A stretch of 64,000 nucleotides of DNA, taken from contig JAQTQS010000001.1 of NCBI GenBank assembly GCA_028712125.1, forward strand, positions 3,526 through 67,525, written 5' to 3'. A model generated the notes under the pieces. That model saw nothing but the letters and a program-made list of their open reading frames with translations. It made no database searches and was not told the DNA's origin. Below, piece by piece: positions 5,201-22,904 of this stretch. This stretch comes from Candidatus Altiarchaeota archaeon. GTDB lineage: Archaea > Altiarchaeota > Altiarchaeia > IMC4 > SCGC-AAA252-I15. Position numbers and translations under genes: made by a program. How positions within the stretch are numbered: position 1 is the stretch's first letter; each line of letters starts with the position of its first letter.

Positions 5201-5515
5201 GTCGGCCCGGACTCCTGCGGCCGGAAGCATGCATATTCCATTGTAGACTGAGGTGAATCCGGGAGCTTCGAACGTTGGGTTTATGAGGAGGGCGCAGAAC
5301 AGCGATGAAACCAGGAATCCGTTGATTACCTTGATTATGGCAAGGGCTATCCATGCGAATATGACGCCCATGAACCCGATTACTGCGGATAGCAGGAGGC
5401 CCACGTATGTCGTCCATGGCAGTGCGAGCACCGTGGGCGGCAGGACTGATATGACGAACAACAATGTTAAGGCTAATGCTATGAACCGCCTTCCATTGCA
5501 ACCCTTTATTTTCAT
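2207..5515 (-). CDS. polytopic membrane protein (~10 TM helices at the N-terminus) with a ~430-aa Gly/Ala/Lys-rich low-complexity region and a ~250-aa acidic C-terminal tail; unknown family
   Basis: The start is assigned to ATG 5515-5513 (MKIKGC...), which overlaps the TGA stop of the upstream giant gene as ATGA. The track's earlier start at 5617 lies inside that upstream gene. The N-terminal third is hydrophobic with many predicted helices. The middle is repeats of GKALG/GKxxG type. The C-terminus is D/E/K/R-rich. Confidence 0.6.
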   Translation of the reverse strand: MKIKGCNGRRFIALALTLLFVISVLPPTVLALPWTTYVGLLLSAVIGFMGVIFAWIALAIIKVINGFLVSSLFCALLINPTFEAPGFTSVYNGICMLPAAGVRADALTNMIRLFLAIMYPMFLLALVFLGAYLVFMANSPPHRARAKQMLLKLLIGMVLASLSPIVYQVLLIVGGSLTDGVLNVIDVSIIPGAGTIRDRLIFAFTHNIMPFPDLWPPNEDMLRAFDMPKVMMAIIVLALTAVFWILAIMVAMFRYTATTFLGIIFPLTVSLYMFEFTRNAGRKMFKATFIFIFTPFIMAMWLACALALLPYTRSSSNYFSSLFLLILMSMMVSFSPLALSGMLNVIGGIITSAGQFVPGFWGTAMVAAGSLMQGKGASAMSMAAAKFSASKMLKGGKALMGAAVFGGKAGFVEAVKRPFSGIAKTVSRAASMASGMAGGTGRGMMFGMMGSSALTRGAASIGLGKALGDYASAKISGRGRAGAFGSMAYGMGKRGLSSVGKGFMGGGSLMKSAVSPFSPSAVAGRWSLLGRTGRVAGKALLRGQLGRALGIGLKAGFGRKIGGLMAKGLRFAAKVSIGKALGKVMEKATGGLITGRDMFQGLGKSIGDKISSLPAALMAKGRSIGALAGAAYAGGKMAVQSGLQASKAAIGKAWQGAKNLSIKGVGKTLGIGALALAAGAGLSLLMPATAAAATLAAGGLLASKTGRGAALRKVQTTAKAAWDMMKRTAMGRSVSALSRIESRKGLGQAIKTGVQHAARAAVHKALGDQEFGRYTDKLKGKGQFQSGGPVGKNRALIGSLARRAAQKALNLTDSQVAALEKRGGGARSRRESERSRNKINNVIDNKGEGFDKLKDGDKKELAYIAGIDTTQPGWEQQLKRDLGMQTQTGDMLEKSNDHFDKVRDGIDKTYSTGDYGEKFEDKSLANKSLREDAKTDGNKAETDRQLAQYETGGDRNAALEAASAEKEKNPVDWADRNGTIHHGMTEDTAKDLEKAGIQTRGELANMTDDQMDRMVRMSSDPAHGMSQNYTKDELSSMRDGAIEATTRSATQGEQSMMDRGMSADEIRDRRDKDRGLKDAILEGGGHRAPEREDFLTALEEER

Positions 5516-8500
5516 TTCTTCCCTTTCCACTCGTCCCACATGTCCTGGAAGTCCATCCGTCTGGCCTCGAAGAATCTGTAGGACATCAGGGCTAGGAACA
5601 CTACAATTATGACCCATGCATTCTCTAGCAGGTAGTCTAGGAAGTTCTTGTAAGCGACCTCGATTTCAAGCTCCTTTAAGGAGGTTTGGTAGCCGGCTTG
5701 CCCAGATGCCGGGCCGTATCCGAAGTAGTCTGCATTGAAGGTTATGCGCCTGCTTCGCTTTTCAATACAGGTCGGTGCCCGTATTATCTGCCCTATCGAG
5801 TATATGCCGGAATATTGGGTGTAGGGGAAGTTGAAGTCTAACTTATACCGTCCCATGCGGAGTTCGCTTCCATCGCATTGGTCTGTTCCAGTGACCCTGA
5901 AGCAGATGTGGGTGGGGGTTTCACTTACCGGCTCGACATCCAGTTCGACTGGGTGTCGCATGTACACGTTCTTCCAGACCGAGCCGACCGCCTCTGTAAT
6001 GTGGTCGTTGCCGCAGCTTAATGCCTGGCCGTCTTCAGTCCTGAACGGGTGTATTTCTATGTGCCTGAAGTCGCTGTATATCCGTAGGATTGAGTCCTCG
6101 AACTTCTCGGACTCTATGCTCTGTGTGCTGAAATTAAGCGTGTAGAGCTTTGTTTGGGGGCTGAATGCTATCTTGGAGGAGATGGCACTCTCCTCTTCGG
6201 CAACCTTTTTAAACTCGAATGTCTCGCTGCCCGAAGCCTGTTTTCCGCCCATGCTCGTTTCGGATTCTTGCAGGTCTTTCGGCTGGGAGTAGAAGCCCAC
6301 AAGGTCCCAGTATTTGGCTTCATCCTCGTGGAAGTTCCTGAACAGCCCGACCTGCTCCTTGGACGGGTCTTTGAACCATGTCCCGTCGTCGCATGTGAGC
6401 TGCACGTCCCAGCTGTAAGGCTCTCCTATAGCCATGAAGAATGTCCGCGTCTTGCCGTTCTTTTCCTGGATTCTGCCTTGTGTCCCGTAGTAGTATTTCT
6501 TGAAGGGGTTTATCATGTAGTGCCAGTAGTCTTCTGACCCTCCCTTGCATGGTTTGAGGAAAAGCATGTCCTGCATCTTGCTGTTTATCGTTATCACCTC
6601 TTTTGATATCGTCGAGTCGAGTATGTAGAGCTCGTGGATTGGCGGGTAATCCTTGGCTATGAAGTTCACCATTGTGGAATCCGGGACTACCATGTCAAAT
6701 CCGCCAATCAGGTCGTTTTGTCGGAGGTCAATAGAGCCTATGCGCAACGAGCCATTAACGCGGTATCTGCGATAGTCTGCGTCGCTTGGAGAGCCACCCC
6801 AGTTGTAGTCGATGAACCCGTACACATTCACGAATGCGTGAGAGCCGGGATTGCCCAGCGGACGGCTTGTTTCAAGGTGGCCGCCGTAGGGTTTGGCATA
6901 AACCGAGGAGGTGTCGTTGATTTCCTCAAGCGCGTCGGGTCTGGCTTGCTGAAAGCCGCCTAACGGGTCTTCGCTAGATACGGGGTAAGCACAGGGATTG
7001 TGAGTCCACGCACCCCAGCAATGGATGCACCCCCTCCACCGGTAAATTACCTGGCAATTGACGACTATTGGACCAGTTGGTGTGTTGTGAACCTCAGTGC
7101 CCAAATCCAGCGGATAGTTACAATTTTCCCATAGTATGCAGGTTCCGTTGGGATAGTACCCTGACGGGCAGCATGGGTAAGTACCTACCTCGCACTCCCC
7201 GCAGGGACTATCGCAATCCTTGTAATAAAAACCATTCATGGGAAATTCACCGTCATCACATAGTTTATAATAATCTATCCAATGGCAGTATTGGTATGCG
7301 TTACATCCGTACCAAAAGCATTCCTGGGCTAGCGGCTGTCGGATTATTGTATGGAGGGCCGAATAATTCATTGTAATTTGGAATGATGTGGTTTGGTCAT
7401 TCAGATTGTGAGTAAGCACACTCGCCCCAACATGCAAAAAGTTCCAAGGGGCTTCAAGCGGCAGGACGTTCGGCCCGGCTGGCATCTTGCCATTTGCGCC
7501 GGCGCCGCTGTTTTCGGATATCATATAGTCGAACCATGCAAGAACCGGATATGAGAGGTACTCAGGTTTCATTAACAGCTTCCTGCAGGACTTGCCGCAT
7601 GATTCTGGCGGTTCGGGGGTCTTCCCATCAGGATTTTGCAGTGCTCCATCGCAAACCCAGTATGGGTTTTCGCCGCTCTGGGGAGCTATACGATTCGTCC
7701 AATCGCCCGGACCGGTAAGGGTTGCGTAATTCGGGTAACAGTTGCAGCCTTCCAGGTTGCTGCACCAGTAATGCTGCGGCGTCCAGACATTACAACCGGT
7801 TGCACCATCAGGATTAGGGCCTGTTTGAGACCAGATATCATCGACAATGACATCCTCTCTGACCCGGTCGTTCCCAAGGTTCTTCGACTCGTCCCAGATG
7901 CCGCCTTGGTCGCGCATATAGTCCCATGCGTAGGGACATATCTGTGTGTTAAAGTATGAGCCGAAATCAGGATCTGAACTCATCCAACCGCCATCGTCAC
8001 AACCGCTTCCGATAAATTTCTGGCAGTACTCGGTGGCAGTGTATGTTCCTCCTGCTTCGGTCTCGTTCGGGAGGTTTCCTCCTGCTGCAAAGTGGAACCA
8101 TATGGGTCCGCCGCCGCGTTCTTTAACGCCGGACAGCGCATTCCCGCGCGTACGGGTGTAGATGGTTGCATCCTTTTGGATTACGGGAGTTCCCGGCGCC
8201 GGAACGCACTCTATCCCGTTCCACAAGAGGGCATCTGCCGGACAGCAAGCCTTGTTCCAGTTTCCGCATCCGCCAAAGCAGTGGACATAGGGATTTGCTG
8301 TACAATTCAGGCCAGGCATGCATTCGTCGTTGTTCCGGCAGCCGCCTTCAGCCTTGCCGCAACGGCAGTCATTCCCCCACCGGTTGCCGTTCTGTATCTT
8401 GTATCGGCAGTAGTCGTTATGGTGTATCTCCCTCTGATATACGCCGCACGTCTGGCAGCATCCGGCTGACGTATCCCAGGTGGTGCCGTCCTCGCAGCAG

Positions 8501-11172
8501 AAGTCCTCGCCCCAAATTGTGCCGTCGCAATGGCCGCTTATACATTTGGCGTCAAACCAGCCGCAGTCGCCGTGGCCGTTGCCGAGCATATCACCCTGGT
8601 TGTCGGTCTCAGCTGCGCATAAATTGTCTTTAGCTTCAAAGTCTGGTATTATGTGGAATTCAGGCGTCACCTTGAATACCATGTCCCAGAGCATCCTCTT
8701 GTTGAACTGGCGGTAGTACTTCAGCTCGGACCTAGTCTCGCCCTCGTTGAACGGGTCTATCCGCCACATGTCTCCGACAACCGTGGAACCGCCGGGATTG
8801 TGGTAATACAGCGGATCCTCGTCATTCCGCTTTAAATCGCCCTGATGGGCCGGCCGCGTAGCCTCGACCTTCGGTGCATTCCAATTTGTGGTCTTTGGGC
8901 TTACAAACCAGTAACGGTCGGTAGCAGCAGGGTCGAAATAATCGATAAGCCTGGGAGGGGACAGCTTCCAGTAGATTATGGGATTGTTGACGGTATTTTC
9001 TAAAGGCCATGCGGCGGGCGATCGCCAATCCGTGACTTTTGGATATTCCGTGTAATTGTAGATTCTGTTTTGCATCGTGTAGTTATACGTTGTGCCGCCG
9101 TGCCAAGGTCCTTGCGTATAGTAATCAACCGCACCGGCACAACCAGAGCTGGTTCCGTCACTGCTATTGCCCCATGGAATTAGGTAAAACTTAGTGGACC
9201 AGCAAGTATTCGGGCGGCAACCTAGGTTAAAGGCTAAACGATAGTCGAATCCTTTCCAGTGTACTGTCGAATGGTTCACAAACGACGCGCTGACGTTGGA
9301 GCTGATTGATTCTATCGACTCGTTGACGATGTGCTTTCGGTCTGGAATACCGAGCTCGAAGTCGAACGCCTTGTCGTCGTACTCCTCGTCAGTCCCGAAA
9401 AACCAGCTCAACCAGCCGCCCCTCTTCCACGGATTCCCGTTGTCATCCTCGTCGTCAATGTCGTTAAACTGGAAGTAGTCGGCTGTCATGCCGGGCGTTT
9501 CGGACGGATCCGGCTGCTCCCACTCGAAGTAACCGCACTTCTGGCTCATAAGCGGATTTCTGAGCGAGCTGTCCTGGAAGCCCATTTCGTAGGAGGCAGC
9601 AAGCGCGGCCCCATAGCTGCATGTGAAATTCCCGGGACCGCACTTGTCGCTCCAGAAGGCGTCTGAGTCTGTCCGGCAGCCGAGGAGCCTGCCCGCGGAC
9701 TTTAAATTCCAATCCCGGAGCGTATAGACGTTCGATTCCCGTATCCTTTGCAGGTCTGACGGGTTTACCATGTGGGTTGAGCCTCTCGACTGCATCGACG
9801 TGGTGTAGTAGTACATCAAGCCCAAGTTCGCGCCATGCCTGGATTTGTTCAACACGGTTATGTAAACCATGGGGAAGTCAAATAGCTTGCCGGCGTCGAT
9901 GGCTTCCCACTGGCAGTCATTAAAGCCGACGTCTTTAATCTGCGCATCGTAAGAGGTGGATGTGGTGGTCCATTGGAGGCGAACGTTTTTGCACATGTTT
10001 GTAACGTTCACGTTGTAAGGCAGGTCGCAAGCGCGCACAAGTATGTAATCCATGCAGTAGTCGTAGTACCCCTCGTCGGTTGGCGTCCCGACCCCCGTGA
10101 CCGGGTTGACGCAACCCTGGGGGGTGTTCCGGCAGGCGTCCATGGCAGCGGCGATGTCCTTGCGGACATCGATTAACTCCCTGTCATCAACCGCTATGGG
10201 CGAGTAAACCCCATCAACAACGGTCAGGTTCAGGTACTCGCTTGGGAGCGTCCCATCTTCATAGGCCCGGTCTACCTTCATCAGGACCAGATACCTCTTC
10301 GGCTCGTCCTCCTCGCTGGAGCGGGCGCAATAGGGTACGTAATCGTTCTCGATGGCAGTCTTCCTGTCGCGGTTGGCGGCATTGTCCTCGCAGTAGCTGG
10401 CGCTATAGGTGAACTGGACTTCATCGTCGGTAATGCCGGTAACCTCTCCGCATTCGATGGTGCCGTCGTTACAAACCTTGACTGCGCGTATGTAACTCTT
10501 GAAGCTGTCCGGAGAAACTGGCATCGGGTCGTGGTCGACATCGAAGCCCATCGTCCCGCGCCCAAGCAACTTGCCCATTTTGCTGACGTTCAGACGCACA
10601 TACCAGACTGTCCCGCCGGCCCCGGCGCCGGACTCGCTCGGCGGGTCGACCGACCCGCGGAATCCGTCAACGTAATCCGGCACGTATTCGGGCGGCTTGC
10701 CATTGCACGTGTCTTTCATGGGGGCGCAGCAGCACAATGATTTCTTGAACGATCCCTCGTACTCGCCTGCCATGCAGCTTGCATCCCCGTTAATGTCGTG
10801 CATCCAGCCTTCGGGGCACATGAATTCCGACTTGTCGTCGCTGTTGGAGTAGATGCACTCCCCCCCGTCAGCGTCCGGGTCCATCGGGTCGTCCAACGTG
10901 GACCTGACGCAAGTCCCGTCTCCGCTCGCGTCGCACGTGAGGAAATCACAGCACTTCGCATCCGGCGGAAAGTCGGGCAGATTCTGGCAGAAGTCGTTGC
11001 CATCCGGCATCTCCCGCTGGCAGTACACGCCGCAGTCCCCGGGCTGGCAGTCCGGGCTTATACTTTCCGGCAGCGATTCATCGCACGGTGTCTGGGCGCT
11101 AGCGATTTGACATGCTGCGAGAAGGAGACCGGCTATTGCAAGGAAGGCGATTGACAGTTTCCGTGCATTCAT
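5512..11172 (-). CDS. giant (1886 aa) secreted cysteine-rich surface protein with a C-terminal TM anchor; unknown family
   Basis: The N-terminal signal peptide is MNARKLSIAFLAIAGLLLAACQIASA. There are over 100 Cys in clustered C-x-C / CC motifs, and the protein is Trp/Tyr/Asn/Asp-rich with many N-x-S/T sequons. The C-terminus has one hydrophobic helix (AWVIIVVFLALMSY) followed by a basic tail. The ORF is uninterrupted. Confidence 0.7.
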   Translation of the reverse strand: MNARKLSIAFLAIAGLLLAACQIASAQTPCDESLPESISPDCQPGDCGVYCQREMPDGNDFCQNLPDFPPDAKCCDFLTCDASGDGTCVRSTLDDPMDPDADGGECIYSNSDDKSEFMCPEGWMHDINGDASCMAGEYEGSFKKSLCCCAPMKDTCNGKPPEYVPDYVDGFRGSVDPPSESGAGAGGTVWYVRLNVSKMGKLLGRGTMGFDVDHDPMPVSPDSFKSYIRAVKVCNDGTIECGEVTGITDDEVQFTYSASYCEDNAANRDRKTAIENDYVPYCARSSEEDEPKRYLVLMKVDRAYEDGTLPSEYLNLTVVDGVYSPIAVDDRELIDVRKDIAAAMDACRNTPQGCVNPVTGVGTPTDEGYYDYCMDYILVRACDLPYNVNVTNMCKNVRLQWTTTSTSYDAQIKDVGFNDCQWEAIDAGKLFDFPMVYITVLNKSRHGANLGLMYYYTTSMQSRGSTHMVNPSDLQRIRESNVYTLRDWNLKSAGRLLGCRTDSDAFWSDKCGPGNFTCSYGAALAASYEMGFQDSSLRNPLMSQKCGYFEWEQPDPSETPGMTADYFQFNDIDDEDDNGNPWKRGGWLSWFFGTDEEYDDKAFDFELGIPDRKHIVNESIESISSNVSASFVNHSTVHWKGFDYRLAFNLGCRPNTCWSTKFYLIPWGNSSDGTSSGCAGAVDYYTQGPWHGGTTYNYTMQNRIYNYTEYPKVTDWRSPAAWPLENTVNNPIIYWKLSPPRLIDYFDPAATDRYWFVSPKTTNWNAPKVEATRPAHQGDLKRNDEDPLYYHNPGGSTVVGDMWRIDPFNEGETRSELKYYRQFNKRMLWDMVFKVTPEFHIIPDFEAKDNLCAAETDNQGDMLGNGHGDCGWFDAKCISGHCDGTIWGEDFCCEDGTTWDTSAGCCQTCGVYQREIHHNDYCRYKIQNGNRWGNDCRCGKAEGGCRNNDECMPGLNCTANPYVHCFGGCGNWNKACCPADALLWNGIECVPAPGTPVIQKDATIYTRTRGNALSGVKERGGGPIWFHFAAGGNLPNETEAGGTYTATEYCQKFIGSGCDDGGWMSSDPDFGSYFNTQICPYAWDYMRDQGGIWDESKNLGNDRVREDVIVDDIWSQTGPNPDGATGCNVWTPQHYWCSNLEGCNCYPNYATLTGPGDWTNRIAPQSGENPYWVCDGALQNPDGKTPEPPESCGKSCRKLLMKPEYLSYPVLAWFDYMISENSGAGANGKMPAGPNVLPLEAPWNFLHVGASVLTHNLNDQTTSFQITMNYSALHTIIRQPLAQECFWYGCNAYQYCHWIDYYKLCDDGEFPMNGFYYKDCDSPCGECEVGTYPCCPSGYYPNGTCILWENCNYPLDLGTEVHNTPTGPIVVNCQVIYRWRGCIHCWGAWTHNPCAYPVSSEDPLGGFQQARPDALEEINDTSSVYAKPYGGHLETSRPLGNPGSHAFVNVYGFIDYNWGGSPSDADYRRYRVNGSLRIGSIDLRQNDLIGGFDMVVPDSTMVNFIAKDYPPIHELYILDSTISKEVITINSKMQDMLFLKPCKGGSEDYWHYMINPFKKYYYGTQGRIQEKNGKTRTFFMAIGEPYSWDVQLTCDDGTWFKDPSKEQVGLFRNFHEDEAKYWDLVGFYSQPKDLQESETSMGGKQASGSETFEFKKVAEEESAISSKIAFSPQTKLYTLNFSTQSIESEKFEDSILRIYSDFRHIEIHPFRTEDGQALSCGNDHITEAVGSVWKNVYMRHPVELDVEPVSETPTHICFRVTGTDQCDGSELRMGRYKLDFNFPYTQYSGIYSIGQIIRAPTCIEKRSRRITFNADYFGYGPASGQAGYQTSLKELEIEVAYKNFLDYLLENAWVIIVVFLALMSYRFFEARRMDFQDMWDEWKGKK

Positions 11173-14734: not shown

Positions 14735-15130
14735 ATGGACGCCGTCAGCGTGCTGGAAGAGTACAACAACATCCTTTCCGACAGGACGGCTTTCGCCGTG
14801 CTCCTCGTTCTCGCCGCCCTCGTCGTAGTCGCAAGACAGCAGGAATTCCGAGCCCGCACGAGGATGGTGCTCCTATCCTTCATGCTCTTCATGGCCTTCC
14901 TCCGGACGGCCCCTTTCATCTACGAAAAAACCCAGTCGATTATGGCAGTCTACGCCGCCGGGGCGCTCACAGTAATAATAATTTATACGCTGCACAGGCA
15001 TACCACCACAGCCGCAACCAAAGCGCTGGACAGGGAATTTACGGATTGGAAAAAACAATCAAACGTGAAAAACGCCAGGTCGCATCACGGCGTTGACGGT
15101 GCTGAAACGAGCCGGCATGAGGCCGAATAG
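14735..15130 (+). CDS. hypothetical membrane protein
   Basis: The ORF has three hydrophobic helices and no recognisable motif. Confidence 0.35.
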   Translation: MDAVSVLEEYNNILSDRTAFAVLLVLAALVVVARQQEFRARTRMVLLSFMLFMAFLRTAPFIYEKTQSIMAVYAAGALTVIIIYTLHRHTTTAATKALDREFTDWKKQSNVKNARSHHGVDGAETSRHEAE

Positions 15131-15197
15131 GTTAACGATGCTTGCGAAAGTTGGCATACGCCGCTAGTCAAGCACTCTTGTGCAGTCGTAAACTGAA

Positions 15198-15261
15198 TTT
15201 TTCTTTCTTTGAACCCAAGGGCCTTTCTTTCTTTTTTCGCAAAAAAGAAAGAAAGGGGCTT
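15198..15261. repeat. 64-nt direct repeat, copy 1 (the tRNA 3' trailer); copy 2 is 15324-15387 inside the intron
   Basis: tttttctttctttgaacccaagggc[c/a]tttctttcttttttcgcaaaaaagaaagaaaggggctt occurs twice, 126 bp apart, and the copies are identical except for one substitution. Copy 1 abuts the tRNA discriminator base and supplies a T-tract on the minus strand, which looks like a terminator. Confidence 0.85.
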
Positions 15262-15305
15262 GCGGGGGACGAGGTTCGAACTCGCGCAGGCCTTCGCCAC
15301 AGGAT

Positions 15306-15387
15306 AACTTAAGTTCCTTGGGTTTTTTCTTTCTTTGAACCCAAGGGCATTTCTTTCTTTTTTCGCAAAAAAGAAAGAAAGGGGCTT
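15306..15387 (-). other. tRNA-Leu intron (82 nt) containing two hairpins
   Basis: The interruption falls between anticodon-loop positions 37 and 38. The intron holds the perfect 16-bp inverted repeat CCTTTCTTTCTTTTTT-GCG-AAAAAAGAAAGAAAGG and a second hairpin CCTTGGGTT...AACCCAAGG. Confidence 0.6.
15324..15387. repeat. 64-nt direct repeat, copy 2 (the core of the tRNA-Leu intron)
   Basis: See copy 1. This copy forms the 5' two-thirds of the intron. Confidence 0.85.
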
Positions 15388-15448
15388 CCTAAGTCCTGCT
15401 CATTTGACCAACTCTGACACCCCCGCGTAAGTAAAATTGGGATGTTCC

Positions 15449-15460
15449 CGCTTTTTATCG
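15449..15460 (-). promoter_or_regulatory. putative TATA box for tRNA-Leu
   Basis: On the minus strand ATAAAAAG lies 25-32 nt upstream of the tRNA 5' end at 15426. Confidence 0.35.
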
Positions 15461-15818
15461 GGACTTCATATTATAGGGATTCCAGTGAATAAAAGCCTAT
15501 TACGAGGCTTCTGTATGCGTTTTTTCGTTTTCCAAGCCCGCTGGTTTGGGTTGGAGTATCAAGCACTGTGCTTGATACTAAGGAGAATCAAACACCCTGC
15601 TTGATTCTCCTCTTTCAGCCTTTTCAGTAAGGTATTTAGACAACGAAAAATAGAAGACGCAAGCCCTAAAAACAAAAAAACGTCTACATGCCCTGTTGAA
15701 TCCTTACTCTGAGAAAGCCAAAACCTATCAAGAGGCTAGGTTGCACCAGAACAAACAAACGACTTACAGAAACAAACGAAAGGGCTTGACGTTGTATCCG
15801 GTTGGGTGTACATTAATC

Positions 15819-16289
15819 CTACTTTGGCTTTAATTGCTTATCTTTGGCTGACTTTCTGCATGGAGATTTACTTTTTTTAAATGCTGTTAAGATAGTTTTT
15901 TGGTCAAAGGAATTAAGCTCTAGCCTATTGAATTGCTGAAATACATAAACCTGGTATCTAGGAGTTTCTTTCTTTTCTTTGGATTTCTTTTTTATCAGCT
16001 TCTTTAAGGTATCTAGTATTATCGTAATAATGCCTGCCTTGGCAAGTTCTCCTAAAAAATCAGAAATAATTTCTGGACCACACTCATGCCGGATTAATGT
16101 AATACGAATTCTGTCTTTTGGACTAATTACTTCAATATTCTTGTAATCAATATCCTTTACGTTTAAATCGAGTTTTTCAAGCTCCTGAACAAATTCATCA
16201 AATTGCGCTCCTTTTAAGTCTAAGTAGTGATCTTTTGTTTTGAACCATATTGCCACACCCGGACTTTTACATTTATCACAATAGTCCAT
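15819..16289 (-). CDS. hypothetical protein (island)
   Basis: The ORF is AT-rich with a Lys-rich C-terminus and no motif. Confidence 0.4.
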   Translation of the reverse strand: MDYCDKCKSPGVAIWFKTKDHYLDLKGAQFDEFVQELEKLDLNVKDIDYKNIEVISPKDRIRITLIRHECGPEIISDFLGELAKAGIITIILDTLKKLIKKKSKEKKETPRYQVYVFQQFNRLELNSFDQKTILTAFKKSKSPCRKSAKDKQLKPK

Positions 16290-16464
16290 AAATAGAATAT
16301 TCTACCTAAAGAAGATAAGACAGTTTTCGAGTAAACCACCCCGAAGGGAATAGACGTCCGTCAGGATAGGTAGGACATATTATCCTTGGGAAGTCGATGC
16401 TGTATGCCCGGTTTAGCCGTTAAGGGCGTCCAGCATTTAGCAGGGAATAGAAGCTATTCGCTGG

Positions 16465-17040
16465 TTAGCTTTTGGTTGAATCCGGGCTTGAACCGTGCTT
16501 TGTTTTTGATTCTAGGCTTGAATCGCCTTGAAAATATGAGGCGATTTTATCTTGAACCGTTCGCCTAGTAAAAGTCGCACCGTATTCTTGATAATGCTCT
16601 AAATTATCCCAGTTGGTGACAACAAAGAAGTAATCAGCATAATTCCCTAAGACAACCATCTTAGGCATAAGCTCTTTTTCGCTTTTTCGGGTGGCTTCGA
16701 CCTCCACAGCTATCCAGCGACCTTCATCCAAACCGAATGTAACGTCCGGTAATCTCGTAAGATTGTATTCTACCTTAGGAGTGTATTTCCGAATCTCGTC
16801 GTATATTATGTTCCAAAGGATGAAATGGGCGTCCGACTCGCCAGTCTCATTCCTTACCAGAAAAGCAGTCCCATTGCCTTGAGAAAACCCCGGATCCCGG
16901 ACTTCATGAAAACCCAGACTTTTAAGTATGTCAAGCCGGACCTTATTCAACTCACTCTTAACATGAATCTTCCGCTCTGTATTAAACCGCGTATGGTCTA
17001 TACCTGCTATCCTCGCCATAAATATAACACTAGACGACAA
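16465..17040 (-). CDS. hypothetical protein, possible PD-(D/E)xK nuclease fold
   Basis: DVTFGLDEGRWIAVEVEATRK gives a D...EVE..K spacing like restriction-endonuclease-like cores. This is a weak assignment. Confidence 0.3.
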   Translation of the reverse strand: MSSSVIFMARIAGIDHTRFNTERKIHVKSELNKVRLDILKSLGFHEVRDPGFSQGNGTAFLVRNETGESDAHFILWNIIYDEIRKYTPKVEYNLTRLPDVTFGLDEGRWIAVEVEATRKSEKELMPKMVVLGNYADYFFVVTNWDNLEHYQEYGATFTRRTVQDKIASYFQGDSSLESKTKHGSSPDSTKS

Positions 17041-17168
17041 ACGACTTGTCGATTAAGAGAAAGCAAATTGACATTATCCAAAAGTACAACTCAAAAAATA
17101 CAAACTAGCATCGTACGAAATACGATAATACGAAAAAGGCAAATTTAAGGCCGCATGTAACTTAACTA

Positions 17169-17747
17169 ATGGGAAATAATATGCAAATAGCATGTTTGGG
17201 TTGGGGCTCTCTAGTTTGGGATCCTAGGGAACTGCCCATAAGAGGGATATGGTTTGAAGACGGCCCCTTCTTACCGATTGAATATGCACGACAATCCAAA
17301 GACGGGAGAATCACTCTTGTTATTGTTGAGGGTAGAACCTTAGTTCGTTCTTTGTGGACACTCCTCAATTGCAACGATTTAACTGGAGCAAAAAAAGCAT
17401 TAGCAGATAGAGAAGGGATAAAAGAGGATGATATCCCTAAAGATATTGGCTTTTGGCCTAGTGATGATAAGAAAAGCGGTAAATGTACTGATTCCATACC
17501 TTTGTGGGCTAAATCTCACTCTCTTGATGCAGTTGTATGGACAAACTTACCCCCTAGATTTGATGGCATAAATGGCAAAATACCAACTGTAGACGAAATA
17601 CTAAATTACTTTAACAGTAGTCTAATGCCAATAGAAAAAAGACGTCTTGCGGAGGAGTATATTACGAAAACCCCGCCCCAAATAGATACAGAATATAGAA
17701 GGGAGATGATATTAAGATTAAACTGGATAACTCGGCGTACGTGTTAA
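17169..17747 (+). CDS. hypothetical protein, ChaC/gamma-glutamylcyclotransferase-like N-terminus
   Basis: IACLGWGSLVWDP resembles the ChaC/GGCT motif (FGYGSLMW). This is a weak assignment. Confidence 0.3.
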   Translation: MGNNMQIACLGWGSLVWDPRELPIRGIWFEDGPFLPIEYARQSKDGRITLVIVEGRTLVRSLWTLLNCNDLTGAKKALADREGIKEDDIPKDIGFWPSDDKKSGKCTDSIPLWAKSHSLDAVVWTNLPPRFDGINGKIPTVDEILNYFNSSLMPIEKRRLAEEYITKTPPQIDTEYRREMILRLNWITRRTC

Positions 17748-17841
17748 GTAAGGGATATCCACACTACAGAGCATTATGTGTATCAGATAAAACAAGGGAT
17801 AAACTGGTGTTAGTGAAGGAATTATTTATACCTACTCCATA

Positions 17842-19392
17842 TTGCTATTTAGGTGTGGTGTGGGTCTGAAAGAATTAGGGGCTTCGGGGAGTAACTCTGT
17901 GGATTCTGGTGTAGAGAGGCGTATCCCAAATTTTAAGCTTGTAACTGTTATCTTATTTTTGTTATTTTCATTAGCTGTTCTATTCGCTATTCTGTTGTCT
18001 TATTTTATTTCATCTGATCTTGGAGATGTGGTGTTGGTAGTGTTTATATCATTGTTTCTATTACTCGCCATACCCGGTAGTGCTATTATCATTATAAGTT
18101 ATATCATAAGAGAGATTGTAAGAGAGAGAAGATTTGAAAAAGAACGAAAAGCAAAAGGATTAGTTAATTTTTGGGGTAAGTGGGGAACTCCAAAAGAGGT
18201 TGAAGAGTGGCGAAGGCAAGAGCAAGATAAACAACAAAAACAAAAAGAAACAATGGGGCTTGACATTGACATCATAGACAATACTGACGATATTCCCTTG
18301 AGGATTGAAAAGGCTCATGAAATATTAGAAAAATATTCTTCTGAACAACCGTATATTAAAGGTTTTGCAGAGAAGTATTACGATAGGATAGAGCAGTATA
18401 TTGATGATATTGGACATAATAAGATATTCCATAAAAGATGGTACCTTGATAAAATTAAAAGTTATGATAAGCAGAAATCCAAGAAAAATAAATGGGATAA
18501 CTGGGAGAAGTCCTTGATTGCGTCTAATAAAAAGGAATATCTCAAGGCTATTGAATTATGTTCAAATCCGTTGGAGATTCTTTTTCATTCTAATCCCCTG
18601 CCTTTCTATGTTAATGAAGAAACAACATCGTATAACGAAAAAAAATCGTATGAAGACAATGAATCATACTATAATGCTGAGCATCTGCGAGGGGAATTAT
18701 TAAAGTTACATCTGCTGCTACAAAATAAAGGATTTGATATTAATTACCACGATTTAGGGTTACTACTGCATTTCCAATTTCTAAATGCAGGGGCGAAACA
18801 ACTGTGGGATAAATTGAAATCTTACAACCCCTCTACATTTGATGATTATATTGATGCGTTTTTGGAGTATTATGGTGAATCCTATCTGCGGAAGACTACT
18901 CCATTTATAGTACTGCTGAGTTCAAAAGGTCTACCGTGTGACGATGAAATAGTGATTCTTGCATTAATGAATAAACATGACGAAGACGACCTCAAACAAC
19001 TTGAAAAATCGTTACTTTCTCGAAATAAAACAGTAAATATGTCTGAAATTGATGCATTATCTGGACACGAATTTGAGAGATTTCTAGGGCGGTTATTTGA
19101 TAAAATGGGTTACAAGGTGACTATAACCCCTAAATCGGGTGATTATGGAGCGGATTTGATACTCGAAAAACACGGTGAAAAGACTGCAGTACAGGCTAAA
19201 AAATGGGGCGGCAACATAGGAATTGAAGCGATACAACAGGTTGTGACATCTAAGAAGTTTTATGATTGCGATAAGGCTATGGTTGTTGGAACTAGCATCT
19301 ACTCAAAAAATGCCGAAGAATTGGCTTTTAGGAATAAGATAGAACTTGTTGACAGGGACAAACTACAGCGATTGATAGAGAAATACATGTAA
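17842..19392 (+). CDS. membrane-anchored protein with a C-terminal Mrr-type restriction endonuclease catalytic domain (Mrr_cat)
   Basis: There are two N-terminal TM helices. The C-terminal ~130 aa read HEFERFLGRLFDKMGYKVTITPKSGDYGADLILEKHGEKTAVQAKKW, which matches Mrr_cat on the D and QxK motifs. The middle ~300 aa are Lys/Asp-rich with no assignment. Confidence 0.6.
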   Translation: MLFRCGVGLKELGASGSNSVDSGVERRIPNFKLVTVILFLLFSLAVLFAILLSYFISSDLGDVVLVVFISLFLLLAIPGSAIIIISYIIREIVRERRFEKERKAKGLVNFWGKWGTPKEVEEWRRQEQDKQQKQKETMGLDIDIIDNTDDIPLRIEKAHEILEKYSSEQPYIKGFAEKYYDRIEQYIDDIGHNKIFHKRWYLDKIKSYDKQKSKKNKWDNWEKSLIASNKKEYLKAIELCSNPLEILFHSNPLPFYVNEETTSYNEKKSYEDNESYYNAEHLRGELLKLHLLLQNKGFDINYHDLGLLLHFQFLNAGAKQLWDKLKSYNPSTFDDYIDAFLEYYGESYLRKTTPFIVLLSSKGLPCDDEIVILALMNKHDEDDLKQLEKSLLSRNKTVNMSEIDALSGHEFERFLGRLFDKMGYKVTITPKSGDYGADLILEKHGEKTAVQAKKWGGNIGIEAIQQVVTSKKFYDCDKAMVVGTSIYSKNAEELAFRNKIELVDRDKLQRLIEKYM

Positions 19393-19460
19393 CTGTATAT
19401 AGAACCGTTATAGAGTAGTTGGTTTTGTTGTCCTTGTCGTTTTTATAGTCGTGTGTCCAC

Positions 19461-19913
19461 GTGTGTACGTGGAAGATGAGCAAGAATGCGCCTAGCAACC
19501 GGGTTAATGAGCTTCGTATTGAGAAGTTGTTCTTACGCAGGGGCTTGGTTGAGAAATTTGAGTCCAAACGGCTTCTGGGGCTTGAGGATTTTGTTTCCTT
19601 CATCTGGCACAACCACCCTAATTACGTTTCTGAGATTACCTTGGAGTTCTTGAAAGAGCTTATTGTATACCGTCGGGAGGGCAAACCCTATACCCAGGAT
19701 GATTGGGTTAGGTTTTGCGGTAGGATGAGTAGTAGCAAGAGCAGCAGGGACATTGTCTTTCGTAAGCTCCTGTATCTTGGCTTGATTGAGAAGCATAATA
19801 AGACTCTCATGCGGTATGAGGTTAGGTTAAGCGACAAGTGGATTAACTACCTAGATTATATGGCTCAGAGCTGGATAGCGATTTGCGAGAATGAACCGAA
19901 GGTCAAACGATAG
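19461..19913 (+). CDS. uncharacterised winged-helix-like family protein (paralogue 1 of 4)
   Basis: It carries the family motifs: an N-terminal W..(D/E)F(I/V)..(I/F)..P block and a C-terminal (K/R)LLYLGLIEKHNKT block, shared with 19891, 20264 and 41409. Confidence 0.45.
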   Translation: MCTWKMSKNAPSNRVNELRIEKLFLRRGLVEKFESKRLLGLEDFVSFIWHNHPNYVSEITLEFLKELIVYRREGKPYTQDDWVRFCGRMSSSKSSRDIVFRKLLYLGLIEKHNKTLMRYEVRLSDKWINYLDYMAQSWIAICENEPKVKR

Positions 19914-20301
19914 CGTATTCATGAAGGATGAGGTCTTTAGGAGGGCTGACGAGAAGCAGCAGATTAGGCTCTGGGAGTTCATGCAACTGTTCTTCCCGGA
20001 AGAAACTAACAAGAAGCAGTTCGAATGCGCATTCACGTTCATGAAAACGCTCTTGGAAGCCAAAAGCGTTGAAAGCACCGGATTAAGGGATATTGTCGAG
20101 TCGGACTATGTGAACCTTACGACTATCGTACTGCCGAAGCTGGAGAAATTCGGCTTAATCAGGGTTACCGGCGAGCGGGGCAAGGGCAAAACCTATAAAA
20201 TAGAGCTGGACAAAATCTTTTCAGACCGGATACGATACATGGGCTTGGAATGGTTCAGAATTTATGCTAAATACGGTGATGTCTATGGTGGGCAATCATG
20301 A
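19891..20301 (+). CDS. uncharacterised winged-helix-like family protein (paralogue 2 of 4)
   Basis: IVLPKLEKFGLIRVTGERGKGKTYKIEL matches the family. It overlaps the preceding gene by 23 bp. Confidence 0.45.
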   Translation: MNRRSNDSVFMKDEVFRRADEKQQIRLWEFMQLFFPEETNKKQFECAFTFMKTLLEAKSVESTGLRDIVESDYVNLTTIVLPKLEKFGLIRVTGERGKGKTYKIELDKIFSDRIRYMGLEWFRIYAKYGDVYGGQS

Positions 20302-20851
20302 GGGCAAGGGCATACCCTCAAGGCATGCCCTATATTTCCCGGAAAAAGGAGGACGCAAGTATGGAACCAAAATATGGGACTACTCCTACCGCTGGAACAT
20401 TGACGACTTACTGGGGTTCGTGTTCCCTGGTGAATTCAGCCCAGTATGCCATAAAATAGCAGTAGACTACCTGGAATACCTGGTTGAAAAAGGCGAAGTA
20501 ACCTACCAAGACAAAGTCGAATTCTGCAACCAACACAATTACAGCATAAACACGCTCAACAAACACATAATACCCAAACTATACCGATTCGGACTGATTC
20601 ACAGGACCAGGGAATTCCCTAAAACCACAGCTTGGAATATCAAAAGCAAAAGACGAAGCTATGAACACGAAAGCCAGCAATTCAGCTCATTCCTAAGGAA
20701 AATAGCAGACGAATGGGAAGCCATACTCAACACCGGAAGACTTAAAAGAAAACACGAAAACCAAAAACAAAAAGAAACACAAAAAGAAATCGAAAAACAA
20801 GAAAAACAGGACTGGGAACGATGGGAAAAGGAACGGGCTTTAGGATGTTAA
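20264..20851 (+). CDS. uncharacterised winged-helix-like family protein (paralogue 3 of 4) with a Lys/Glu-rich C-terminal tail
   Basis: WNIDDLLGFVFPGEFSPVCHKIAVDYL...NKHIIPKLYRFGLIHRTREF aligns along most of its length with the 41409 ORF. Confidence 0.5.
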   Translation: MLNTVMSMVGNHEGKGIPSRHALYFPEKGGRKYGTKIWDYSYRWNIDDLLGFVFPGEFSPVCHKIAVDYLEYLVEKGEVTYQDKVEFCNQHNYSINTLNKHIIPKLYRFGLIHRTREFPKTTAWNIKSKRRSYEHESQQFSSFLRKIADEWEAILNTGRLKRKHENQKQKETQKEIEKQEKQDWERWEKERALGC

Positions 20852-20891
20852 TATTAGATTACCACGCTTCTGAATATACCCAACGTGTTTT

Positions 20892-21146
20892 TTATTCTTC
20901 TGAACGTAATACGCCGGTTTCTCCTAAAAACTTTTTATCCGAATCATCTAAAGGCTTTTTCTTCAGCAATTTTTTAATAATTCCCTTCAACTCCACATTC
21001 TCCTGTTCTAAACTGCGACTGTGACTTAAAGCTTCTTCAGTTTTCTTTTTTTGCTGAATATACCCCCAAGGTGTCCCATCCATAAAATATTTATTATATC
21101 CATGACATATAAGCTTAAACGACAAAAATCGAGCTTCCACAAACAC
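20892..21146 (-). CDS. hypothetical small protein with coiled-coil character
   Basis: The ORF lies at the right edge of the island and has a Lys/Glu-rich heptad-like stretch. Confidence 0.3.
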   Translation of the reverse strand: MFVEARFLSFKLICHGYNKYFMDGTPWGYIQQKKKTEEALSHSRSLEQENVELKGIIKKLLKKKPLDDSDKKFLGETGVLRSEE

Positions 21147-21338
21147 CTTGCTTGATTCTTCCCTGAAAAGAAGTAGATTAAAACACCTTGCTTGATAGTC
21201 CGATAGGAGAAAAAGTAGTCTTGACGTTGAACCTAGCCGTGGTGGACGTCCGGTACGCCACTGGCGCTGTGGTATTGTGTGTTTTTTTGGGTGTCTTAGT
21301 ATATGAAACAGACGAATAAATATACTATTGCAGCAGGG

Positions 21339-21785
21339 TTATTTCTTTAGCATTTCTTCGAGTATTTCGGCTGCGTCTTTGACGTATTTAGGGCATTTGG
21401 TGGTTATGGCGTTTGTTTCGCTTGCTTTTTTAAAGCCTTCTGGCGTGCTTAGGTCGCAGCCGAGGAGGTCTTTGCAGTATAGCGAGCCGTTCCGGGCTTT
21501 GAATTCTTCGCTGAATTTTTTGACTGCATCGTATGTGTTTTCTTTCCTTTGCATGCCCGGCTCGTTTCCCAATGTGTGTTTAAGGCTTAGTACCATGAAT
21601 GCGCCGGTTACCGCGCCGCAAGTCAAGCCCATCCGGCCCATGCCGGCGCCGAAGGCGAGCGCAAGCCTGAGGGCTTCAGCCCGGCCAAGACCGTATTTCG
21701 GGCTGTATGTCGAGAGTATCGCCTGCGCGCAGTTCATGGCCGTTCCTTCCTTGAACGCGGTGACCGCGTCTTCGGGGGTTGTCAT
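21339..21785 (-). CDS. C_GCAxxG_C_C family protein (putative redox-active)
   Basis: MNCAQAIL...GAFGAGMG...TCGAVTGA...CPKYVKDAAEILE matches the C_GCAxxG_C_C pattern. GC-rich sequence resumes here. Confidence 0.55.
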   Translation of the reverse strand: MTTPEDAVTAFKEGTAMNCAQAILSTYSPKYGLGRAEALRLALAFGAGMGRMGLTCGAVTGAFMVLSLKHTLGNEPGMQRKENTYDAVKKFSEEFKARNGSLYCKDLLGCDLSTPEGFKKASETNAITTKCPKYVKDAAEILEEMLKK

Positions 21786-21845
21786 GGTCGTTTAATACTA
21801 GGCGTGCAGCTAATAACTTGGCTGGTACATATCCTTATTTTTATA

Positions 21846-22904
21846 TCAGTTGACTTCCAGGTAGTGGGTGTCGGATTTAGCACTTTCGATACAGGCGTCC
21901 ACCATCATTTGTCCGGATTGCACCTTGTTTATCATATCGCATATCCCGGGTTTGTGGAGGGCGAGAGCGAATGTCTTATAGCAACGATCTCTGTCGAATA
22001 TGTCTTTTAGGGCGTCGCATGTTGTAGGGTCGTTTTTGGATATGCCCACTTCCCTGCTGCAGAGTTCTTTGTAATCCTTGCTTATGTTACTGCAGTATTT
22101 TTCGTCTGCCGTAACTGCGGCTAAGCAGATTGCGGTATAGGGCTGTATACGCTGGCCGCGTTCCGTTACGTTCTCGCTTATAAGGTCGCACAGTTGGATG
22201 TCTTTCTTTGTCCTCGCTGCGGACATTATGCAGAGGTTTTGGTCGTCTTCATAGTAGAGGGACTTGCATATTGTTATGTTCATCGTCTTTAGCGCGATTG
22301 CCTTATAGCATCTCCTCTCGGTCCATTCGTAACCCGGCTCTCCTTCGGTGACAATTTCACAGAGGTTCAAGTCTTTGCGGGTTTTGCCGTTTTCCCTAAA
22401 GCATTCCTCCTGCGAGCCGTAGGTATGGCCGTCATAGACGTATCTGCCGTCATCCGGCGTACTGCGTTGGCAGATTATGCTGGAATTGAACGTCGTGTGA
22501 CATAATTTTAGGCTGTCTGTGGCGTTCATGTAGTTGTAACACATGCATTTATGGCTTATGTCTTTTATCCTGTCGCATTTAACCTGGAGGGTGCCGCCTT
22601 TAGGCTGCATCGCCTTCAAGCATTCCCTTTCCAGGTATTCCGAGAATATCTGGCAAAAGAAAGGGTCTTCTTTTTCGAGGACGTCTAAGTACTCTTGAGG
22701 GTGACGCATCGCCGGATGCCCGATTCCAAAACCGTAATATGTGGTTATCCCTTTGCATTCATCGATATTCTCGGCATTCAGGCAGTCAACCGAAGGGCGC
22801 GCGTAATGCTTGGGCATTATTTCAGAGCACAGGCAGCCAGAAAGGCATATGACGTAAACAAAGAGGAGGGGCAGTCTACAGAGTTTTCGAGTCATAATTA
22901 ACAT
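21846..22904 (-). CDS. secreted/lipoprotein-like cysteine-rich repeat protein, hypothetical
   Basis: The signal peptide is followed by the Cys cluster CLSGCLC. There are about 30 Cys with recurring ...K(D)xxLC(D/E)(I/L)... modules (KDLNLCEIV, KKDIQLCDLI, DQNLCIMSA, PGICDMI). Confidence 0.5.
   Translation of the reverse strand: MLIMTRKLCRLPLLFVYVICLSGCLCSEIMPKHYARPSVDCLNAENIDECKGITTYYGFGIGHPAMRHPQEYLDVLEKEDPFFCQIFSEYLERECLKAMQPKGGTLQVKCDRIKDISHKCMCYNYMNATDSLKLCHTTFNSSIICQRSTPDDGRYVYDGHTYGSQEECFRENGKTRKDLNLCEIVTEGEPGYEWTERRCYKAIALKTMNITICKSLYYEDDQNLCIMSAARTKKDIQLCDLISENVTERGQRIQPYTAICLAAVTADEKYCSNISKDYKELCSREVGISKNDPTTCDALKDIFDRDRCYKTFALALHKPGICDMINKVQSGQMMVDACIESAKSDTHYLEVN

Follow-up and report, generated by a model that had tools for sequence, protein, structure and literature searches.

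A tRNA-Leu(UAG) gene with a canonical intron

This study concerns a tRNA-Leu(UAG) gene and the 64-nt module that occurs in both its intron and its 3' trailer, on the minus strand of a 64,000-nt stretch of Candidatus Altiarchaeota contig JAQTQS010000001.1 (this whole stretch is called the window below). With introns allowed, ARAGORN calls tRNA-Leu(tag) at c[15261,15426] with an 82-nt intron after position 37. The gene including its intron (15261..15426, minus strand, 166 nt; mature form 84 nt, CCA not encoded) consists of a 5' exon carrying positions 1-37 (15388..15426; anticodon TAG at 15391-15389), an intron at the canonical position 37/38 (15306..15387), and a 3' exon carrying positions 38-73 (15261..15305), which ends with A73 at 15261. 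The acceptor stem is a perfect 7 bp, the discriminator base is A73, the D-loop contains GG, and the variable arm is long. Once the 82 nt are removed, the 84-nt product is called again by ARAGORN as tRNA-Leu(tag), which bears out the description, in an initial annotation of this DNA, of a well-formed type II tRNA-Leu interrupted at 37/38. Neither default ARAGORN nor an Rfam scan at gathering threshold reports any tRNA in the whole 64-kb window, because the gene carries an intron; in practice, default-mode tRNA finders and Rfam overlook this gene.

Canonical archaeal tRNA introns, with the hBHBh' architecture at 37/38 (BHB, bulge-helix-bulge), are cut by EndA and the exons are joined by RtcB. 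An explicit search with the template helix, 3-nt bulge, 4-bp helix, 3-nt bulge, helix recovered an hBHBh' motif, cagga CTTA [GG|A] ag ... ct TAAG [TT|A] tcctg, and so the BHB context that had been proposed for this intron is present. The 5' strand of the motif (15387..15393) provides CTTA for the central helix (15393-15390) and the bulge G36 G37 / A (15389-15387), with the 5' splice site between 15388 and 15387; the 3' strand (15305..15313) provides the h' partner CT (15313-15312), TAAG for the central helix (15311-15308), and the bulge TT / A38 (15307-15305), with the 3' splice site between 15306 and 15305. The central helix is paired at 4/4 positions, both bulges are 3 nt, h has 6 bp, and h' has 2 bp. 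In the minimum free energy (MFE) fold, the central helix is lengthened by G36.U and G37-C to 6 bp and the 5' bulge is lost; the strict BHB is, in these predictions, an alternative pairing in a register nearly equal to that of the MFE fold. The intron is predicted to fold at -25.6 kcal/mol (z = -3.9; 0/200 shuffles as good), and the anticodon arm together with the intron at -36 kcal/mol (z = -4.1). The intron resembles a canonical archaeal intron in its position, its 4-bp helix and two 3-nt bulges, its archaeal host, and the normal type II tRNA-Leu left after splicing, and we infer that it is removed by the tRNA splicing endonuclease at a canonical BHB. The junctions are ordinary; what is odd is the content, namely a T4-T6 tract, a 14-16-bp pyrimidine/purine hairpin, and a sequence in common with the gene's own trailer.

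The host is archaeal, as the window encodes aIF2-alpha, a PAC2 proteasome chaperone, and an Mbh-type hydrogenase, and the PAC2 protein is 100% identical to a protein of a Ca. Altiarchaeota metagenome-assembled genome (MAG). A conserved promoter and leader region (15446..15476, minus) includes a TATA-like CTATAATAT at 15476-15468, ~46 nt before the tRNA, and a leader hairpin TCCCG...CGGGA at 15463-15446; TATA-like boxes and a hairpin of similar kind precede orthologous tRNA-Leu genes, and ~290 nt upstream of the tRNA (window 15427-15720, minus) are 93% identical to the locus of one relative, L008. Given the conserved box and leader hairpin, the gene looks expressed, and it is an ordinary, probably functional Altiarchaeota gene.

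Two copies of one module

A repeat search confirmed that 64 nt of the intron recur 126 bp away: 15198-15261 and 15324-15387 form a direct repeat identical at 63/64 positions, with a single mismatch (C at 15223 versus A at 15349 on the plus strand). On the minus strand, the intron copy (15324..15387) consists of the prefix AAGCC, a pyrimidine arm Y (15382-15367), the loop GCG (15366-15364), a purine arm R1 (15363-15348), the spacer CCCTTGGGTTC (15347-15337), and a second purine tract R2, AAAGAAAGAAAAAA (15336-15323). The trailer copy (15198..15261, minus) has its Y arm at 15256-15241, the loop at 15240-15238, R1 at 15237-15222, the spacer at 15221-15211, and R2, AAAGAAAGAAAAA, at 15210-15198. 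This copy had been described as directly abutting the discriminator base; it is indeed adjacent, but starts on A73 itself (15261) and overlaps the tRNA by 1 nt. Likewise, the perfect 16-bp stem-loop ascribed to the unit is found in the trailer copy only (15222-15256), and the intron copy has one C.U mismatch at 15349. The hairpin pattern has just two occurrences in the 64-kb window, against a chance expectation of 0. Folded alone, the 64-nt unit gives z = -1.65, a weak value because shuffles of such low-complexity sequence pair too. In the trailer, a T6 tract at 15246-15241 (minus) places at least five T just downstream of the gene, as in an archaeal oligo-T terminator, and on the plus strand of the same module T5 and T6 face the convergent open reading frame (ORF) 14735-15130.

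Within the intron, a second hairpin, CCTTGGGTT / AACCCAAGG (15316..15346, minus), encloses R2 and is T-arm-like. Its stem varies among relatives (CTCGGG/CCCGAG in the locus L068), and only the change GAG/CTC to AAG/CTT scored as compensatory in an alignment fold. We also observed that the spacer CT(C/T)GGGTTCAAA (window 15337-15347, 15211-15221) is identical to the T-arm 5' strand and loop start of tRNAs of the same lineage (L040, L023, L026), and that in intron modules the spacer closes with CCCGAG or CCCAAG, like a T-arm with R2 set into its loop. This identity could be due to chance or to descent from the 3' part of a tRNA.

A multi-copy family at gene ends and in introns

The family pattern CCCTTTCTTTCTTTT-N(1-14)-AAAGAAAGAAA was scanned in GTDB species representatives and in IMG/VR. 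It has 33 matches in the GTDB representatives, 32 of them in archaeal MAGs (up to six per genome) labeled Altiarchaeota/Altiarchaeia, Iainarchaeum, or Micrarchaeota, so that the hairpin element does recur elsewhere, as a multi-copy family. There are 0 matches in the IMG/VR viral contigs, and a viral origin of the module was rejected on this ground. All matches share the layout Y - loop - R1 - spacer - R2, with the spacer GCCCTCGGGTTC in Altiarchaeota copies, GTGTAAGTTGCCC in the others, and extra hairpins in some; the R2 purine tract of the family is CAAAGAAAGAAAA. From its sequence, the module can be described as a multi-copy noncoding family of Altiarchaeota and other DPANN-type archaea.

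Because the 33 matches were picked by the module alone, the counts of their genomic contexts are unbiased. Nine of the 33 lie 1-7 nt past the 3' end of a same-strand tRNA, five lie in tRNA introns in sense orientation and another 2-3 in antisense, and 5-6 lie 4-7 nt past the stop of a same-strand ORF; the remainder occupy other intergenic sites, some of them antisense between co-directional genes. Bystander tRNAs in the fetched loci have module trailers in 4/30 cases, and a module-like hairpin in 3/14 introns. In some loci of Iainarchaeota/Micrarchaeota type the module is antisense: one such copy immediately precedes a ribosome-binding site, GGAGGTGA, with its start codon (L013, ~5200-5260), and another abuts the 5' end of a tRNA-Val in a way reminiscent of MALAT1 (L025, 685-790).

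Module copies at the 5' start of introns occur in tRNAs for Leu, Phe, Trp, Cys, and Arg. With the window copies excluded, the module core in these introns is identical or has at most five differences, and the remainder of the intron differs. The module introns of Phe, Arg, Gly, and Leu(CAA) tRNAs have recognizable BHBs and splice to normal tRNAs. A subfamily with the prefix GAGC and the spacer GCCCTCGGGTTC is nearly invariant and heads the canonical introns of several tRNAs.

A three-tract design

On one strand, the module reads as a pyrimidine arm Y, a 2-9-nt loop, the complementary purine arm R1, a spacer that is 4-13 nt or structured, and the purine tract R2, and both window copies have this order of Y, R, R. 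Across variants, Y and R1 remain complementary as their sequences change, and R2 keeps the 5'-to-3' order of Y and is therefore a mirror of R1. The run lengths of Y and R2 correspond, as in (5,3,3)->(5,3,2), (4,5)->(4,5), and (4,2)->(4,2), and in the window (3,3,6)->(3,3,5/6); an unusual Y arm, TTTTTCTCTTTCTTT, is matched by the exactly co-linear R2 AAAAAGAGAAAGAAA. In a block-order test over distinct informative patterns, 38 were mirror, 6 direct, and 13 tied (binomial p = 5e-7), and all 6 direct patterns have spacers of at least 24 nt and appear to have R2 misassigned. An independent scoring gave 29 mirror versus 4 direct downstream of the hairpin, and 12 versus 15 in the upstream control; an earlier scoring (11/5/4) was weakened by the inclusion of non-tract flanks. 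The block-order test rules out, for multi-block modules, that R2 is a direct repeat of R1 that serves as an alternative Watson-Crick partner of Y. Single-block variants (the trailers of L068, L083, and L046) are ambiguous between mirror and direct order.

An inverted repeat and a mirror repeat on one strand correspond to the layout of a class II (purine-motif) intrastrand triplex, in which the third tract would form A.A-T and G.G-C triads, and the other strand would have the pyrimidine-motif layout. A basal helix is predicted in which GAG of the prefix pairs with CTC of the spacer (alignment fold). Under the ITxF definition, with loops of 1-6 nt, the first loop (3 nt) is within range and the second, 11 nt in the window, is outside the strict definition. 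That the subfamily is strongly conserved in sequence, that the spacer tolerates inserts with structure of their own, and that the tracts co-vary all suggest selection on a folded single strand.

The gene in relatives

Relatives were gathered through PAC2 homologs (syntenic contigs) and a metagenome scan for the conserved 3' exon, which gave a total of 82 tRNA-Leu loci for comparison; L046 is the same locus as L005, and L068 the same as L008. The same intron occurs in L005/L046 (PAC2 71% identical; intron 81 nt) and in L008/L068 (PAC2 75% identical; intron 83 nt), with the unit at 92-95% identity in each. A canonical BHB was found in L068 by automated search, and that of L046 was read by eye from the sequence, with one U·U mismatch in the central helix. 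Since the intron and its unit are common to both relatives, the intron copy is inherited rather than new. The trailers of L046 and L068 differ in sequence from the window trailer. The tRNA-Leu(UAG) of L003 (PAC2 81% identical) is intronless, and in the tRNA-Leu loci of other lineages the intron is absent or unrelated (42-43 nt).

Among the tRNA-Leu loci compared, only the window has the unit at both intron and trailer. A class II module of the same plan and other sequence is present in 18/30 distinct tRNA-Leu(UAG) trailers, intronless genes included, where it starts 1-5 nt past the discriminator (in one case at +40); it is found in 1/38 tRNA-Leu(GAG) trailers. A homologous element was thus in place at the trailer site beforehand. 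As the sequences of orthologous tRNA-Leu(UAG) trailers diverge, the Y/R1 complementarity and the mirror order of R2 are kept.

Several of these loci appear rearranged, and assemblies of relatives break at the module repeats. L003, the relative whose PAC2 is closest to that of the window, has a complete intronless tRNA-Leu(UAG) whose trailer resembles the module (1953-2060); ~100 nt before it, 29 nt from the 5' end of tRNA-Leu are repeated, with a short module behind them (1824-1900). Three more contigs of its lineage end or break at this spot. Extra copies of the last ~17 nt of the tRNA occur downstream of the real gene in L006 (3136-3152, 3288-3301) and L008 (~5985-6010), each followed by a module-like trailer, and look like pseudo-3'-halves or footprints of repeated local duplication. 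The tRNA-Leu(UAG) of L052 (c[994,1220]) has a 142-nt intron with 2-3 module-like units, one apparently nested in another, which suggests repeated insertion or slippage. Another conserved hairpin, GGGTTGATAAGGGCGGGAA...GCCTGCCCTTAT, recurs near tRNA loci (L006 3235-3275; also L020, L065, L095, L098, L105, L114, L117, L052) and, in some tRNA-Leu(GAG) introns, right before the 3' exon.

Why the two window copies match

The initial annotation took the near-identity of the two copies as a sign of recent movement into or out of the intron. The comparison speaks against this: the intron copy is orthologous and old, the trailer site was occupied beforehand, and the two copies share derived states. These states emerged when 12 copies of the Altiarchaeota subfamily were compared, 2 of them the window copies. 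Without the window copies and a truncated copy in L018, subfamily copies differ by 0-6 positions whatever their context; the Leu intron copy of L046, for instance, equals the Trp intron copy of another genome (L024) and differs at a single position from the trailer copies of Ile and Ser tRNAs. The window copies have 1 difference between them and at least 5 from all 10 others. They share T6/A6 at the top of the stem, and AAG and CTT instead of GAG and CTC, which in the alignment fold is a compensatory change of a G-C to an A-U pair in the basal helix. The combination AAG...CTT occurs elsewhere only in the trailer of L068 (AAGCC...CCCTTGGG), the relative with the most similar upstream region, and in no other intron copy; the inner hairpin and R2 of the window copies are of the intron type. 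The two copies therefore look like a mosaic of an ancestral trailer module and an ancestral intron module, and their shared derived states suggest local homogenization of neighboring family members. The most economical cause is local gene conversion across 126 bp, which best explains the 63/64 identity. A plain 126-bp tandem duplication is rejected because the 18-nt intron tail and the 3' exon leave no trace after the trailer copy. What stands of the original proposal, that a hairpin element is copied between intron and flank, is that the element occupies both places in many genomes, so that such copying has taken place in this lineage; this is not an intron caught in the act of moving.

Proposed explanation and its rivals

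Taken together, the account that we consider probable, with some reservation, is that of an ordinary tRNA gene with a BHB intron, in which a triplex-layout module that belongs to the 3' flank of genes rides as a passenger in the intron and whose two copies were brought together by local gene conversion. As to function, our best guess is a host 3'-flank element. The module would usually reside within a few nucleotides downstream of tRNA genes and, in some lineages, of protein genes, where its T-rich tracts on both strands and its hairpin would most likely serve to mark or insulate the transcription unit's 3' end; the position past gene ends and the T-rich tracts suggest such a 3'-end or insulating role. 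Copies of the subfamily with the GAGC prefix would also have reached the extreme 5' end of canonical introns in several tRNAs, where the module is probably tolerated as a passenger, since it is spliced out. In the window, an inherited intron copy and a trailer copy, at the site of a diverged module in relatives, would then have been homogenized by local gene conversion. Ranked from our best guess downward, this passenger of the 3' flank is followed by a selfish mobile hairpin, a released RNA, and an intron born from the trailer.

The module shares with archaeal oligo-T terminators the T5-T6 tracts on both strands right after convergent genes (the tRNA and ORF 14735-15130), and U-tracts cooperate with aCPSF1 in archaeal termination (PMC2253867, PMC8716108). 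It differs from them in that its tract is also in an intron, and the R1 and R2 tracts and their co-variation would be superfluous for termination. A scan for bacterial-type terminators passes over the module, since its T tract forms the 5' arm instead of a tail. We also considered R2 as an internal promoter for a separate 3' half and rejected it; the promoter box of this lineage is T/A-alternating (CTATAATAT), and the intron contains nothing similar.

Several points weigh against the preferred explanation. The terminator role that the initial annotation gave to the T-tract of the trailer is plausible but weakened by an identical T6 tract 7 nt into the intron; in 14 ordinary introns of the tRNA-Leu family, T-runs are at most 3, and archaeal RNA polymerase terminates efficiently at T5-6 in vitro (PMC2253867). 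Either termination at the module is inefficient, or it depends on the upstream RNA (the tRNA body versus a 5' half), or it is not the role of the module. TM_ECO, a bacterial analog, showed no promoter or terminator activity (PMC4666352). The 61-nt core of the subfamily is near-invariant across genomes and contexts, which exceeds the need of a purely structural flank element and fits either a sequence-specific function or ongoing copying. The mirror statistic counts distinct patterns and not independent events, and purine-motif triplexes are not known to be stable in RNA. Gene conversion is inferred from shared derived states only, and a one-step copying of module over module would look the same; conversion may have run in either direction or in both.

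The module could instead be a selfish mobile hairpin, MITE/REP/PATE-like or a transposing intron, surviving only in safe niches, with the trailer or the intron copy a recent insertion. This is unlikely in our view, yet it accounts for a subfamily that is nearly identical at non-orthologous sites in different genomes, for copies in both orientations, within introns too, for the nested or tandem modules in the 142-nt intron of L052, and for a module intron present in some orthologous tRNA-Leu(UAG) genes and absent in others; near-identical introns in different tRNAs are, moreover, a published mark of intron transposition (PMC4090602). However, the window copies have no terminal inverted repeats beyond the hairpin and no target-site duplication in their flanks, and no transposase or integrase is seen nearby, as far as the window reaches. 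Viral contigs have no matches, the intron copy is orthologous in three lineages, and the window copies are mosaic, with the flank state of the L068 trailer and a core of intron type. Orthologous trailers keep the three tracts while diverging with co-variation, a pattern that requires selection in place and not the decay of dead insertions, and a spacing of 1-7 nt from 3' ends would be too exact unless targeting were very specific.

A third reading, which we hold to be rather improbable, has the module as a small functional RNA freed by tRNA processing (by RNase Z after the discriminator, and by the splicing endonuclease after position 37), so that the duplication would provide two expression sites; such an RNA would resemble tRNA-linked snoRNAs, the C/D-box RNA of the archaeal tRNA-Trp intron, and tRF-1 trailers. 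The module does start 0-7 nt from a tRNA-processing cleavage site in both contexts, its sequence is itself conserved more than the tRNA exons and the remainder of the intron, and the compensatory change in the basal helix and the tolerated spacer hairpins indicate a folded single strand. On the other hand, ~20-25% of copies are antisense to flanking genes, intron copies included, and copies also follow ORFs, where such processing is not known. No Rfam family, no C/D or H/ACA features, and no evident target were found; the intron has no features of a C/D-box guide RNA, and its only Rfam matches are spurious sub-threshold miRNA hairpins. Those miRNA-precursor matches, from a permissive Rfam scan of 15000-15900, were dismissed as low-complexity hairpin artifacts. 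The sense strand would, in addition, need a purine-motif RNA triplex, a structure that is not known to be stable.

That the intron was born from the trailer, by tandem duplication of the gene with its trailer and loss of the first 3' half and the second 5' half, is very unlikely, although the order of elements fits exactly (5' exon, module, 18 nt, 3' exon, module), L003 offers a possible intermediate in its 29-nt 5' fragment and short module ~100 nt before an intronless gene with a module, and L006 repeats the tRNA 3' end with its trailer. It requires two precise deletions that end at 37/38 and leave a BHB-competent remnant, and one such event for each of at least five different tRNAs whose introns are headed by the same subfamily module; further, L046 and L068 share the intron and have different trailers, so that the 98% identity in the window is younger than the origin of the intron. 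Finally, a simple local duplication or assembly artifact, or an att duplication by an element integrated beside the tRNA, is suggested by an A-B-A structure spanning 190 bp and by the low-GC block with an Mrr nuclease that adjoins the tRNA, but is largely refuted and hardly credible given dozens of copies of the unit in many genomes, the intron copy in independently assembled relatives, and a repeated part that is intron and trailer and not tRNA body; the window contains no tRNA fragment >12 nt elsewhere and no integrase domain was found in it, and on these grounds an att site or integrated element was rejected.

A bolder reading is that the module truly folds as an intrastrand triplex, in nascent RNA or transient single-stranded DNA, and is a conserved tRNA-end element of DPANN-type archaea that carries trailer sequence into anticodon-loop introns through local recombination or copying. 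We regard this as doubtful. If the module does fold as a triplex, it would be the first among natural triplex elements whose genomic role in archaea is defined, and if it also copies trailers into introns, it would provide a concrete, sequence-traceable route of archaeal tRNA intron gain and turnover.

Neighborhood of the gene

The stretch of 290 nt upstream of the tRNA stands out for its 93% identity to L008 although the neighboring PAC2 proteins are just 75% identical; beyond the promoter and leader it contains more hairpins, at 15581-15611 and 15555-15579, has no Rfam match, and may be an unannotated small RNA or regulatory region. On the 5' side of the tRNA, window 16000-22000 forms a low-GC block (0.38-0.45 versus ~0.53) that encodes an Mrr-type restriction endonuclease (17842-19392) and ORFs without Pfam matches; it looks like an island, with no integrase or tRNA-fragment repeat found. 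Neither of two very large minus-strand ORFs, 2207-5617 (1136 aa) and 5512-11172 (1886 aa), matches a Pfam or NCBIfam family. The plus-strand ORF 14735-15130, which encodes 131 aa and includes hydrophobic segments, runs toward the trailer module and stops 68 nt short of it; no family matches it convincingly, and no ORF occurs at that position in the fetched loci of relatives.

Significance and comparison with known systems

The origin and spread of archaeal tRNA introns are unsettled, and intron transposition has been published without a known mechanism or source sequence. In the lineage studied here, the intron core is the same discrete module as the 3' trailers of tRNA genes, and relatives present several stages: intronless genes with a trailer module, a module intron with a diverged trailer, homogenized copies, nested modules, and stray tRNA fragments. 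With these loci, the gain, loss, and conversion of introns can be compared in a tractable system. The module also appears to bring conserved intrastrand-triplex repeats into DPANN-type archaea under a positional rule much tighter than in the bacterial cases, which opens its function to 3'-end mapping and biophysics. We found no published description of an archaeal (GAAA)n-type element with triplex layout, of its coupling to tRNA or ORF 3' ends, of its presence as the core of canonical tRNA introns, or of one gene with both positions. The intron type, introns shared among tRNAs, and triplex repeats were already known.

Near-identical introns among different tRNAs are known from Thermoproteales (PMC4090602, PMC4033280), and the introns described here are similar in that near-identical sequence occurs in tRNAs of different identity (Leu, Phe, Trp, Cys, Arg). 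They differ in that they belong to another phylum (Altiarchaeota/DPANN), were seen at canonical positions only (ARAGORN models anticodon-loop introns only), and share a discrete module at the intron 5' start and not the whole intron; the module is also a tRNA and ORF trailer, which is not mentioned in PMC4090602 or PMC4033280. In Caldiarchaeum, a tRNA gene is disrupted by a 1.8-kb recombinase-encoding insertion (Sugahara et al. 2012, PMC3293823); the two cases have in common that a single tRNA locus is heterogeneous at population level, with intron gain or loss and stray tRNA fragments (compare L003 and L006), whereas no recombinase is seen here.

Read in antisense, the module has the U-rich, U-rich, A-rich order of the U1-U2-A tracts in the MALAT1/MEN-beta triple helix (PMC8457004, PMC7583470), and it similarly adjoins a tRNA-processing site. 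The likeness goes no further than analogy: most copies are found downstream of tRNAs in sense orientation, an ENE-type internal loop is lacking, there is no sign of 3' ends made by RNase P, and the host belongs to another domain of life.

In bacteria, class II intrastrand triplex motifs make up intergenic repeats that are both abundant and conserved (Holder et al. 2015, PMC4666352). One of them, TM_ECO/BoxC, adopts a DNA triplex in vitro and is a marker of loci prone to rearrangement (PMC4666352). Like these PIT elements (for TM_ECO/BoxC, CCCTCNCCC-N3-6-GGGNGAGGG-N3-GGGNGAGGG), the archaeal module has the order pyrimidine, purine, mirror purine, and it is multi-copy, intergenic, conserved, and found at rearrangement-prone loci, the tRNA-Leu loci being rearranged likewise, with copies of tRNA fragments and nested modules. 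Unlike them, it has A/T-rich (GAAA)n instead of G/C-rich tracts, a second loop that is 7-13 nt or structured instead of 1-6 nt, and an archaeal host, and it is distinguished by its tight coupling to gene 3' ends and its residence in tRNA introns.

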